A DNA stretch of 64,000 nt, taken from Candidatus Poribacteria bacterium. GTDB lineage: Bacteria; Poribacteria; WGA-4E; WGA-3G. Below are positions 6,001 to 9,000 of this stretch, in pieces. The number at the start of each line of letters is the position of its first letter. Positions within the stretch are counted from its first letter, which is position 1. The stretch lies in assembly GCA_965215265.1 (NCBI GenBank), contig OZ244048.1, forward strand, positions 1,088,001-1,152,000. Direction: 5' to 3'. The position numbers are program-made.

Positions 6001-9000
6001 CGGGGTATTGACGTCGTGCGTCACGGAATTCTCCGTCGCTGAGTAGGGTTCCGGGTTCGAGTGGACAGTCGGGATGATAGACGTAGGTGATGCGGTGGCG
6101 TAATTTGGGTGCATCAACTCCGGGGTATCGTCTGTGTGCGGATTTGAGTTCAGCTGGGGTTAAGATGTCGCCGACGTTGAGGGGGCAATCTGGATGATGC
6201 ACCTGGGTGACTTCGTGGAGGACGGTGTCGTTTTTCTTAACTTGAAAGGGCTGATGAGTCAGCCGTGCTGTCTCGTATTGTGCTTCGGTGAGGGTTTCGC
6301 CGGGGTGTAGTGGGGCATCTACGTTGACGACGTAGCTGGGCCTGGTATCCAGGTCAAAAGGGGTGAGCCAGGTGCGGATGTCTTCTTCTTCTACGTTGTG
6401 GTTAACGGCGAAGGGGAAGTTTTGCTGATGGCGGGCTGTGATGCGGTATAGCCGCTTAAAATTCCTATTTTTTTCGTATATTTCCCCACCATCAACGTCT
6501 CTGTTTTGCTGGCTTCGGAACCCTTCGATGTTTTCGTCGCCCGCCCACCCAAATCCTTCCTCTGGGGTGAGCTGTTGGGGGGTTAGGAGTTGGCCTGTTT
6601 GATTATCAAGGTAGCGCCATTCGCCTTCAAAGTGGGCATGGATGTTGGCTTTTATTTGTTCGGCCTCGGTTTGTGTCAAGAAGTCACCAACGGCGACGGG
6701 GATATCTGGATGTCGGACGGCTGTTACTTTGTATTGCTGGGTGACATAGATATTAAAGCCGTATTGGCTGCGTGCTGTGTCATACTGTGCTTGCGAAAGC
6801 CGGTCACCGGGACGAAGTGGACAGGTTGGGTCGTTGACGGTGGCGACTTCGTATTGCCAAGTGTTTGTCTCAAAGCCTTTATACCGTTCTACGTTTTCGG
6901 AGAACTGTTTTTCGCTGAGGAGTTCTTGGGGCTGGAGTTGGCAATCTGGATGGTTGACGTGTTTGACTTTGTATGCGGGTCCGTCGAGGTCAGCGCGGTT
7001 TTCGAGTGCGACCCAGAGTTCTCCTTCTTGTCGGACGGTGCTGCCGGGCAAGAAGTCTCGGAAATGAATGGTTCCGTTGACTTTTGCGTGAATTTGGCGT
7101 TGGGGTGCGTCGGATGCTTGTTCGACGGCACCGCCGGTGTGGAAAGTGCGCATGGTGAGCTGGGTGCCGGGTTCGCCAATGGATTGTGCGGCAATGATGC
7201 CGATGGCTTCTCCGACATCTGCGAGTTGTCCTGTGGTTAAGTCCGTGCCGTAGCATTTTGCACAGACACCCCGTTCGGTTTGGCAGGTAAGGACGGACCG
7301 GACTTTGACGACTTGTATGCCGGCCTGCTCGATTTTTGTGGCAGCGGTGGCGGAGATAAGGGTATCTGCGGGGACTAAGATGTCGCCTGTATGGGGGTGG
7401 ACAATGTCTTCGGCTGCGGTGCGTCCCTGAATTTTGAATGCGAGGGTTCCGCCGTCGGTTTTAAATTTATGGATGGATGCGAGCGTCTTGCAATCTTCGG
7501 CGCGAATGCGAACATCTTGGGCGACATCAACGAGTTTACGTGTGAGGTAGCCGGATGCAGCGGTTTTCATGGCGGTATCTACTAATCCTTTCCGGGAGCC
7601 GTAGGTTGAGTTGAAATAGTCGAGTACATCTAATCCTTCGCGGTAGGAACTTTTAATCGGTTCACTGAGGATTTCGCCGCTTTGGCGGGCTTTCAATCCG
7701 ACCAGGGCACTAATTTGCATGAAGGGGTTTTTGCGTGCACGTGCACCGCTGTCTGCCATGACATAGACTGGAGAAAATCCTTTGACGGCTTCTTGTCGTT
7801 CGATGAGATAGGTTTCGAGGTCAGGGAGCGTCTCAAAAAGGGTTGCTTCAAGTTTCTCAATGGCTTCAAACCATAGGCGAATTCGCTCGTTTTCCAGGTG
7901 CTCGGTGTTGGCAGTAGGTGCGGTGTTTATGAGGGTGTCGACTGCGGCTTGTGCTTCGTTGACCAGGGTGTCGCGGTTGGGCGGTAGGATGTAATCCTTG
8001 ATTGCGGGTGAGATTCCGCTGAGTGTAGCGTACTCAAAGGCGAGTTTCTGGAGGTTGCTGAGCACTTCGGTTGTCGACTGCGTTCCCAATTCGTGGAAAC
8101 AGCGATGTATGAGTGTCGATAATTCGCGTCCGCCTGCTTCCGCATTGAAGAATGGGATGCGTTGTCCGGAATGCGGGTCGGTCCATTCCAGTTCATCTGG
8201 GATGACTTGGTTCAAAATGACTCTGCCGACGGTAGTGAGAATCGGCTTTTCGTATAGTTCAGTACCGTCAGTGCTTCGGTTGTGGGTGAAGAAGAGTTGT
8301 ATGCTATCGTGAAGTTTCAATTGTCCAGCTGTGTATGCGGCGATGACCTCGTCTGGATGGGTGTAGCGGCGATAGTACCAGGGCCGGTTGCTGAGTTCGT
8401 CAAACGTGCTGAGTTTTTCTCTATTTAGATAGGCAGCATGGAGCTGTCCTGCGTCGCCATCATGGGATGGCAAGGCTTTGGTGAGAAAACTGGGGCCGAG
8501 GACCATGTCGAGTTCAGGTACTGCGATGGGTTCTCCGTGAGAGGGCTTTAAGATGTTATGAGAACTGAGCATGAGCAATTTGGCTTCTGCTTGTGCTTCG
8601 GCAGTGAGGGGTACGTGAACGGCCATCTGGTCTCCATCAAAATCGGCGTTAAAGGCTTTGCAGACGAGGGGGGGGATGCGTATAGATTTCCCTTCTACTA
8701 ATACAGGCATAAATGCCTGGATGCCGAGCCGATGTAAGGTCGGTGGACGATTGAGTAAGACAGGATGCTCTGCGATAACTTCTTCAAGTACATCCCAGAC
8801 GGGGCTTTCGGAATGTATATGTTCGGTCAAGAATTTGGCACGTTTCATGGTGCCGGTGTAGCCGTATGCTTGTAGGCGCTCGATAATAAACGGTTTGAAG
8901 AGTTCGACGGCCATGCGTTTTGGGAGTCCACACTGGTGGAGTGCGAGTTCTGGTCCGACGACGATAACACTCCGCCCGGAGTAGTCAACGCGTTTGCCGA

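Follow-up and report, generated by a model that had tools for sequence, protein, structure and literature searches.

Lineage-wide rewrite of the rim helices, F-loop and bridge helix in the RNA polymerase of one Candidatus Poribacteria family

Introduction

Few parts of bacterial RNA polymerase (RNAP) are as strongly conserved or as well studied as the F-loop, the bridge-helix cap and the rim helices, which are also the targets of several natural antibiotics. In the excerpted text of PMC3874190, the F-loop is described as an adaptable element of the unit that it forms with the trigger loop and the bridge helix, and as the element that sets the catalytic differences between the Thermus and Deinococcus enzymes. 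Here, we analyze these parts of the β′ subunit encoded by rpoC in a stretch of 64,000 nucleotides from Candidatus Poribacteria bacterium (assembly GCA_965215265.1, contig OZ244048.1, positions 1,088,001 to 1,152,000 of the forward strand), called the window in the following. The gene encodes an essential enzyme that is ordinary except for one functional surface, normally near-invariant, which has undergone an unusual rewrite throughout the lineage.

The consequences of single changes at this surface are known from E. coli. According to the excerpt of PMC3959191, the β′ substitutions P750L and F773V are CBR-resistant and pause-resistant, have slower forward translocation and a weakened coupling between the bridge helix and β, and are hypothesized to be inviable without CBR. 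In the same source, H777A is CBR-hypersensitive and N792D is more sensitive to streptolydigin.

Many bacterial enzymes also carry large lineage-specific insertions. The E. coli trigger-loop insertion is bounded by residues 940 and 1132, and the β insertion β-i4 consists of one to six β-β′ module 2 (BBM2) repeats, as given in part of PMC2939025. Known trigger-loop insertions are described as containing two to five sandwich-barrel hybrid motifs (excerpt of bioRxiv 10.1101/2021.01.27.428476), and the cyanobacterial one, Si3, as containing eight (excerpt of PMC10895346). Qayyum et al. report in the latter that Si3 lies at the rim helix and blocks the Gre/DksA site, which may be linked to the absence of Gre and DksA in cyanobacteria. 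The literature matches listed for Poribacteria in combination with rpoC, trigger loop or RNA polymerase β include none on the feature described here; among them, only PMC3444138 contains both Poribacteria and rpoC.

Results and Discussion

The reference used was the RpoC of E. coli LF82 (RefSeq record), to which the window protein aligns without gaps (MAFFT) over E. coli residues 715–815. The boundaries of the F-loop, bridge helix, rim helices and trigger loop are our own working assumption. Translation of 7532–7753 on the minus strand gives DSGARARKNPFMQ...GYLTRKL, corresponding to E. coli residues 727–800. This reproduces letter for letter the peptide given in an earlier reading of the DNA made from the sequence alone (the sequence-only reading), which had proposed a remodeled F-loop, bridge helix and secondary channel in an active enzyme. 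The ten substitutions listed there, G732A, S733R, Q736P, R738M, R744V, P750Q, F763Y, H777Y, A779S and R799K, are all found with their E. coli numbers. The replacements PELD, NRPPT and YGAGIIND elsewhere in the protein are likewise present in the alignment, and the catalytic NADFDGD and the trigger-loop MRTFH are indeed unchanged. In all, 33 of the 74 residues are unlike E. coli (55% identity); the corresponding sequence from a sister family of Poribacteria is 74% identical. The changes within the F-loop are R738M, G742A, R744V, M747K, P750Q, I755L and E756S, and those within the bridge helix are E771D (E. coli has Q), I774N, H777Y, A779S, A784V, L788M, N792A and R799K.

Some of these states are extremely rare. 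The related Poribacteria loci were sorted into coded families, f1 to f8, with the window genome in f1. Residues 700–1010 were searched against 1.84 billion cluster representatives (50% identity), which returned 150 sequences; 141 of them cover the region, and three of these are f1-like Poribacteria. Among the 141, residue 744 is R in 136, V in two and I in one, residue 747 is M in 128 and K in three, and residue 750 is P in 123 and Q in three. The corresponding numbers are 133 G and three A at position 732, 128 F and four Y at 763, and 92 R and two M at 738. Other states are found more often, namely Y at 777 (18, against 116 H), S at 779 (10, against 113 A), V at 784 (22, against 99 A) and K at 799 (29, against 112 R). 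The substitution list is thus a mixture of nearly unique states and recurrent alternatives. In another set of 52 diverse β′ sequences, R744V/I, M747K and P750Q do not occur.

Within the phylum, the distribution is sharply divided. All f1 loci, with RpoC lengths of 1868–2511 amino acids (aa), are derived, and all loci of the seven other families (f2–f8, mostly 1394–1781 aa) are canonical, with the pattern QI(S/A)GMRGLM.KP...F/LREGL. Of 80 related named genome loci, 78 are labeled Candidatus Poribacteria, one 'uncultured bacterium' and one Candidatus Omnitrophota. The residue pattern was scored in 62 of them: 60 carry I, V or L at 744 jointly with 747K, 750Q, 777Y and 784V, and two are canonical, with no intermediate combination of these five states among the loci scored. 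Four of the remaining 18 were inspected by eye, and all four are canonical. The best 120 clusters at 90% identity for the region are all at least 86% identical to the window and have the same residues; the named ones among them are all Candidatus Poribacteria, except for one labeled with a sponge species.

The changes specific to the family are R738M, G742A, R744V/I, M747K, P750Q, F763Y, I774N, H777Y, A779S, A784V and L788M, together with A446S, H450P, L1138I, the changes at 1242–1246, and A426P, the last of which is also seen in 3 of 22 other Poribacteria. Common to the order or wider are G732 to S or A, S733 to K or R, Q736P, S503E/Q504L and R799K, while H777Y and A784V are convergent with cyanobacterial-type β″. 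Only part of the list in the sequence-only reading is therefore lineage-specific: the core set belongs to the family and not to the phylum as a whole, and the entries at G732, S733, Q736P, PELD and R799K are shared more broadly.

Several variants were seen around this region. A subset of f1 (L007, L011 and part of L053–L090) has a further insertion of 8–15 residues after residue 759, between the F-loop and the bridge helix, which is an additional remodeling of this element. In a sister group with 52–53% identity (L089, L091, L095, L108), two residues are inserted before the R731 equivalent (DSGA-IS-R), and the F-loop is otherwise canonical. A long RpoC relative of 1780 aa (L142/L143) was considered as a possible intermediate and rejected, as its extra length is located after residues 714 and 1292 and its F-loop is canonical.

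Outside the 727–800 region, the most extensive change is at the tip of the rim helices, where G..GERYNKVIDxW is replaced by T..EHLENERIRLW in the window β′. The motif G671...E677-R678-Y679-N680-K681-V682-I683-D684-x-W686 is retained, with minor variation, in all 22 other Poribacteria. The f1 tip reads E-(H/L/Y)-E-N-E-(Q/K/R)-I-R-x-W with residues 670–671 lost, and the alignment is clean there. Close to the active site, residue 426 is P in 16 of 16 f1 sequences and A in 57 of 57 diverse ones (the other Poribacteria have A in 19 and P in three). A446S and H450P are both found in 16 of 16 f1 sequences, and residue 450 is H in 55 of the 57 diverse sequences. In the trigger-loop hinge, residue 1138 is L in 51 of 52 diverse sequences, with a gap in the remaining one.

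The β subunit is changed as well. Its fork loop 2, RERAT(F/Y)(E/D)VRDVH, is replaced by RDRATAAVRDVH in 10 of 10 f1 sequences; in other Poribacteria, residue 545 is F in eight and Y in three, and residue 546 is E in nine and D in two. We take β 543–546 to be streptolydigin resistance sites. The f1 family further shows F/Y to V at β 642 and D674E, and keeps D675, N677 and R678 in 10 of 10 sequences. Among the f1-derived β changes are also S509N, L530I and L533I, positions that presumably belong to the rifampicin-binding region. At the partners of the bridge-helix cap, F545A, E546A, F642V and D674E are thus derived, but over RpoB as a whole no cluster of derived changes was detected (scan p 0.69–0.91).

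The gene itself is recognizable as a full-length rpoC. Its open frame comprises 1916 codons (4379–10129, minus strand) and reaches a TTG at 10129. The 1908-aa length adopted here is that of a 100%-identical database cluster (P0153), and the alignments of relatives begin at residue 9. The product scores 1444.2 bits against TIGR02386 (cut-off 963.5), covering profile positions 12–1145 of 1147, has five Pfam Rpb1 domains and matches solved bacterial β′ chains at E = 0. The equivalent of R731 in DSGAR is present. The source genome is a single contig of 4.83 Mb, 95% complete, and contains one TIGR02386 match; all other matches to β′ are short shared modules inside rpoB. Since the gene is single-copy, scores well above the cut-off and has intact motifs, and since the new residues are fixed in the family, the active enzyme put forward in the sequence-only reading is well supported. 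The window rpoC would then be the sole, working housekeeping β′ subunit of one Candidatus Poribacteria family.

We now consider when and where these changes arose. In a maximum-likelihood tree (1119 columns), f1 is monophyletic (support 1.0) inside the Poribacteria clade (1.0) and is the sister of f2+f3+f4, with a stem length of 0.37 compared to a median branch of 0.08. This nested position with a long stem indicates vertical descent and not transfer. To count changes, a column was called derived if it is invariant and identical in the sister families and fixed to another residue in the focal family. For RpoC, this gives 126 of 731 columns (17%) in f1, compared to 10/508 in f2, 4/523 in f3 and 24/513 in f4 (one sequence). 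Restricted to E. coli-anchored columns outside SI3, the f1 value is 89/672 (13%). For RpoB, it is 81/707 (11.5%). The corresponding numbers are 3/329 (0.9%) in f1 for EF-G (f2 2/294, f3 1/297, f4 5/322) and 12/367 (3.3%) for GyrB (f2 4/283, f3 2/285, f4 5/298). Considering only columns that are also at least 80% conserved in 57 diverse bacteria, 19/348 are derived in f1, 7/334 in f2, 0/332 in f3 and 1/343 in f5. The burst on the f1 stem is thus specific to RNA polymerase and involves both of its large subunits.

Along β′, the derived changes are not uniformly distributed. In bins of 50 residues, the derived fractions are 9/18 at 651–700, 8/23 at 701–750 and 11/45 at 751–800, and most other bins are below 15%. 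Taken together, 651–800 has 28/86 derived columns compared to 61/586 elsewhere (Fisher 4e-7). In a scan statistic, for which the region is not chosen beforehand, the maximum is 28 derived among 80 consecutive conserved columns (E. coli 600–768), which was equalled in 0 of 5000 permutations, and a shorter scan gives 16/40 at 650–747 (p 0.0016). With looser conservation filters, 730–800 reaches p 0.02 to 0.002, and 0.12 to 0.03 in window permutations; the clustering signal is clear only with the within-Poribacteria criterion and the scan statistic. Along the sequence, these results support the 'rebuilt secondary channel' of the sequence-only reading: the changes are concentrated at the tip of the rim helices, in the F-loop and in the N-terminal part of the bridge helix, and they hit published inhibitor contacts. 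They also widen it, as the hot spot takes in the rim helices further upstream. An even spread of changes is not what is seen in RpoC, although there is at the same time a general acceleration in both large subunits.

Within f1, mean identity is 89.5% in 727–800 compared to 81% in the core, and within other Poribacteria it is 86% compared to 71%. Across the f1 boundary, on the other hand, the two values are 62% and 60%. The normally slow-evolving 727–800 region has jumped once and then frozen, which points to purifying selection on the new state.

With these numbers, the plainest alternative can be assessed, namely that the pattern reflects nothing more than general fast evolution of a symbiont, an artefact of misassembly or misalignment, or a horizontally acquired polymerase. 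It is true that the f1 stem of GyrB is somewhat longer too (3.3% vs 0.7–1.7%) and that the RpoB changes are evenly spread. However, EF-G is not accelerated (0.9%) and the RpoC changes are clustered. The same residues are moreover present in the best 120 clusters at 90% identity and in 60 genome loci. The alignment has no gaps in 727–800 and is clean in the rim helices, and f1 sits inside the Poribacteria with support 1.0. This explanation is largely excluded, and we consider it very improbable.

We next consider the factors that act through the secondary channel. The rim tip has a role in the binding of Gre, DksA and ppGpp. In the Poribacteria genomes searched, mostly 90–99% complete, these factors were not found: GreA_GreB_N (PF03449) and the DksA/TraR zinc finger (zf-dskA_traR) gave no match in any of the 31 genomes searched from the order, and none of 61 genomes from the phylum, the window genome included, had a greA (TIGR01462) match over the cut-off; there were six partial matches, all weak. 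In 14 control genomes, the same searches matched nine times for GreA_GreB_N, nine for greA and six for zf-dskA_traR, and the Gre searches gave no match in Synechococcus. A phylum without known secondary-channel factors would, by analogy, parallel the cyanobacteria.

This result suggests an explanation by relaxed constraint, in which the rim and the channel lining were free to drift because they had no partner such as Gre or DksA, with later compensation of slightly deleterious changes. The missing factors would fit this scenario, as would the fact that the rim-helix tip is the most changed bin (9/18 columns). However, the factors were equally not found in the sister families, which have a canonical rim tip (GERYNxVIDVW), F-loop and bridge helix, and their absence from the searches can therefore not alone explain the f1 rewrite. 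In addition, conservation within f1 is higher in the rewritten region than in the remainder of the protein, which is the opposite of ongoing relaxation, and the role of the F-loop and bridge helix lies in catalysis and not in the binding of factors. We thus regard relaxed constraint as improbable.

A second large change in f1 concerns the trigger loop. The size of its insertion was measured as the number of residues from MRTFH to PRVxDLFE, which is 667 in the window β′ and 207 in E. coli. It is 628–677 in 16 f1 loci, 669 and 980 in two f1-like representatives, and 193–280 in 20 other Poribacteria. The window insertion lies between the two arms of the trigger loop, as SI3 (β′-i6) does. Each of its modules is predicted to begin with a long strand, followed by a loop of 11 residues carrying HHPDCPLxxG, a short strand and a helix of 10 residues; the module motif is HHPDCPLxxGxxL. 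Similar modules occur in the β insertion that follows E. coli β 233–254, at the β-i4 position: the β′ modules match it with E values of 3.6e-11 and 1.2e-9, and the β matches fall on β′ residues 1264–1393. Judged by these matches, one module family seems to have multiplied in β as well as in β′.

An AlphaFold model of the window insertion (676 residues) was built from 16 sequences, with a mean predicted local distance difference test (pLDDT) score of 77. A Foldseek search with this 676-residue model gave no match at E ≤0.001. The best match, at E 0.26, was Thermosynechococcus Si3, and the small domain of cytochrome f was matched locally over short stretches, with probabilities of 0.90–0.98; all of these matches are weak. 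With a piece of 171 residues, VIA-align gave Z scores of 4.0–4.3 to β′ and β″ chains only, with none at or above 5, and E. coli β-i4 was not among the matches listed for this piece (all Z <5). As no confident structural match was obtained, the window insertion may differ from the usual array of sandwich-barrel hybrid motifs.

Some relatives show other large alterations of β′. Several f1 RpoC proteins of 2054–2555 aa (P0161, P0226, P0228, P0243, P0244, P0260, P0267, P0269–P0271) contain an endonuclease-type Pfam domain, PF18741 and in one case PF04480, which suggests a mobile insertion or an intein-like element in rpoC. Some f1 relatives have a second β′-like gene of 1073–1160 aa (L147:1314–4541, minus strand; L148:773–3991, plus strand; P0008), which the window genome does not have. 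It is of f1-type origin, with a degenerate catalytic loop, no trigger-loop insertion and an F-loop and bridge helix that are lost or decayed, and by its sequence it looks like a catalytically dead paralogue. In other families, second β′ matches occur in open frames of 1042–1104 aa. One distant Poribacteria genome with 5% contamination (L146, G032:C261) has an extra, very divergent fused rpoB–rpoC frame of 2246 aa with GGQRFGEME and NADFDGD.

The combination of a giant trigger-loop insertion and missing Gre and DksA invites a comparison with cyanobacteria. Among non-Poribacteria, Y777 and V784 occur together in 8 of 8 sequences with an insertion of at least 600 residues and in 2 of 40 with a shorter one, where the large-insertion rows represent few lineages and are not independent events. 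Six of the Y777/V784 representatives match rpoC2_cyan over the full profile, and a seventh is an unsplit form. A broad convergence with cyanobacteria was examined and rejected, as only H777Y and A784V are common among the 50 f1-derived positions checked from residue 654 onward. One can nevertheless conceive of an independent 'cyanobacterial-style' polymerase, with an Si3-sized insertion made of different, β-derived modules, no Gre or DksA, Y777/V784, a positively selected rewrite of the rim tip and F-loop pocket that exceeds what is seen in cyanobacteria, its own trigger-loop control and a natural immunity to inhibitors of the bridge-helix cap and secondary channel produced by microbes nearby. 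In this full form, we find the idea doubtful.

The rewritten surface is also a binding site for inhibitors. In the excerpt of PMC4029172, the salinamide contacts are β′ 738, 739, 744–748, 775, 778, 779, 781, 782 and 785 and β 675 and 677. The resistance sites given there include 738, 763 and 779, with R738 both forming a hydrogen bond to salinamide and giving high-level resistance, and a clash is predicted for any bulkier side chain at 779. For microcin J25, the excerpt of PMC6347699 describes the essential Y9 as buried against R744, M747, S775, G778, A779 and β D675 and N677, with a hydrogen bond to R744. Of the published contact and resistance residues, f1 has R738M, R744V, M747K, A779S, F763Y and P750Q. 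Without R738, R744, M747, P750 and the small A779, inhibitors of the bridge-helix cap and the secondary channel are predicted to bind poorly. The pocket to which salinamide, microcin J25, capistruin and CBR compounds bind would accordingly have lost key contacts in this family.

It could therefore be that natural RNAP inhibitors in the habitat, such as salinamide-like depsipeptides or lasso peptides, drove the divergence of their target site, with the remaining changes as compensation. The most unusual changes, those at R738, R744, M747, F763, A779 and P750, indeed fall on contact or resistance residues in the excerpted sources. R744V/I, M747K and P750Q, moreover, are found in none of the 52 diverse sequences, and the new state is under purifying selection. 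On the other hand, the equally important contacts β D675, N677 and R678 are kept in 10 of 10 f1 sequences, T931 is also kept, and most derived changes lie outside the known sites (rim tip, jaw and 81 over RpoB). The enrichment on the contact lists is marginal (p 0.05–0.08), and single substitutions are normally enough for resistance. Self-resistance to an own lasso peptide is not supported either, as the genome gave no match to the lasso-peptide B-protein domain (PF13471). We regard this inhibitor-driven divergence as rather unlikely.

The explanation that we prefer, with a probability of roughly 0.45, is that the unit of trigger loop, F-loop and bridge helix was re-optimized under selection together with the channel rim. 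On the f1 stem, both large RNAP subunits underwent a burst of change that is not seen in the other housekeeping proteins compared. In β′, the burst is focused on one continuous stretch, which starts at the rim-helix tip, where the secondary channel opens, and continues by way of the F-loop to the N-terminal half of the bridge helix; satellite changes lie beside the catalytic loop, in the trigger-loop hinge, in the jaw and in β fork loop 2. It coincided with the growth of the trigger-loop insertion from about 200 to 630–980 residues, in a phylum where Gre and DksA were not found. The unit of trigger loop, F-loop and bridge helix sets trigger-loop folding, translocation and pausing; it and the rim may have been retuned to work with a very large mobile domain on the trigger loop, and the retuned state would then have been frozen by purifying selection. 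The substitutions, their distribution among families, their clustering, the RNAP-specific acceleration and their co-occurrence with the insertion are observed here; a causal link to the insertion, kinetic consequences and insensitivity to inhibitors are inferred.

A number of observations weigh against this re-optimization. The insertion and the substitutions arose on one branch and thus count as a single event, so their co-occurrence cannot show cause. Furthermore, cyanobacterial-type β″, with an insertion of 643–695 aa, keeps R744 in 7 of 7, M747 in 7 of 7, P750 in 5 of 7 and F763 in 7 of 7 sequences, and it retains the rim-tip E-R-Y/F. A giant insertion together with a canonical F-loop means that insertion size alone does not demand the rewrite. 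With the strictest conservation filter (at least 90% in the 57 diverse sequences and in the other Poribacteria), 730–800 has 3/30 derived columns compared to 10/243 elsewhere (p 0.16), and the window permutation gives p 0.49. Finally, against the 13% background, the contact enrichment is marginal: 4 of the 13 residues of β′ in contact with salinamide are changed (p 0.08), and in the Y9 pocket 3 of 7 are (p 0.05).

The coordinates of all features are collected in Table 1. The end of rpoB and the rpoC open frame are separated by 501 bases on the same strand, and the flanking genes are unrelated (class II fumarase, DUF4416, S58 peptidase and an EF-G paralogue). A gene of the EF-G family (17893–19980, minus strand) lies a few kb upstream of rpoB, and in most of these genomes three EF-G-family proteins score above the TIGR00484 cut-off.

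Table 1. Features of rpoC and rpoB in the window (residue numbers are those of E. coli)
Feature	Position	Strand	Remarks
rpoC (RNA polymerase β′)	4379..10105	-	1908 aa from probable ATG at 10105
YGAGIIND (1241–1250)	4793..4816	-	R1242G, Q1244G, G1245–V1246 deleted; family-specific
Jaw segment (1151–1200)	4967..5116	-	4 derived of 14 conserved columns
Trigger-loop C-terminal arm and hinge, DIVAGIPRV	5117..5176	-	L1138I fixed in f1; residue 1136 is A
Trigger-loop insertion, SI3 position	5171..7126	-	about 650 aa, about eleven modules of 40–45 aa
Trigger-loop N-terminal arm with MRTFH	7121..7210	-	canonical
Bridge helix (769–805)	7517..7627	-	
Region of the finding (727–800)	7532..7753	-	DSGAR, F-loop, N-terminal two thirds of bridge helix
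Hot spot of f1-derived substitutions (600–800)	7532..8125	-	33/110 conserved columns vs 56/562 elsewhere
F-loop (736–757)	7661..7726	-	PFMQISALVGLKARQSGEILSE
Rim helices (650–703)	7820..7975	-	tip motif rewritten, residues 670–671 deleted
PELD (PSQD in E. coli, 502–505)	8507..8518	-	S503E, Q504L; common to other Poribacteria families
Catalytic NADFDGD	8630..8650	-	intact
SIRIP (446–450)	8672..8686	-	A446S and H450P, just upstream of the catalytic loop
NRPPT (424–428)	8738..8752	-	A426P, adjoining R425
rpoB (β)	10631..15280	-	1549-codon open reading frame directly upstream of rpoC
β fork loop 2	13088..13123	-	RDRATAAVRDVH; F545A and E546A fixed in f1
β insertion at β-i4 (SI1) position	13946..14551	-	modules resemble those of the β′ trigger-loop insertion

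A natural lineage that has replaced R744, M747, P750 and the rim tip, and still depends on one essential polymerase, is a ready-made experiment, both on which contacts are required for trigger-loop control and on target-site divergence. With a second, independent giant trigger-loop insertion in a group where Gre and DksA were not found, the link proposed between these traits in cyanobacteria becomes testable by comparison. For these uncultured symbionts, inhibitor sensitivity inferred from model organisms may fail.

Comparison with Known Systems

Compared with E. coli RpoC, f1 has the same gene, architecture, catalytic loop, trigger-loop arms and bridge-helix core. It differs in that the near-invariant R744, M747, P750 and rim tip are changed, A426P and H450P are introduced beside the active site, and residues 1245–1246 are deleted.

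The laboratory mutants of E. coli concern the same or adjacent positions: P750L and F773V, and the salinamide-resistant changes at R738, A779 and F763, correspond to P750Q, I774N, R738M, A779S and F763Y in f1. They demonstrate that translocation, pausing and inhibitor binding are under the control of these sites. The laboratory changes are, however, single substitutions, some of them harmful, whereas in f1 the set has been fixed jointly in a natural lineage and is conserved.

The F-loops of Thermus aquaticus and Deinococcus radiodurans provide, in the excerpt of PMC3874190, a precedent for natural differences that retune trigger-loop transitions and catalysis. That case involves few and conservative differences between close relatives, whereas in f1 near-invariant residues and neighboring elements are changed.

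Cyanobacterial and plastid β″ (rpoC2) resembles f1 in the size of the insertion (643–695 vs 628–677 aa), in Y777 and V784 (7 of 7) and in that Gre and DksA, absent from cyanobacteria, were not found in the Poribacteria searched. In contrast to it, the f1 gene is unsplit, while the cyanobacteria retain R744, M747, F763 and the rim-tip E-R-Y/F. The insertion of the Poribacteria is made of short modules of 40–45 aa which are also present in β, and it has no confident match to the Si3 of cyanobacteria with its eight sandwich-barrel hybrid motifs.

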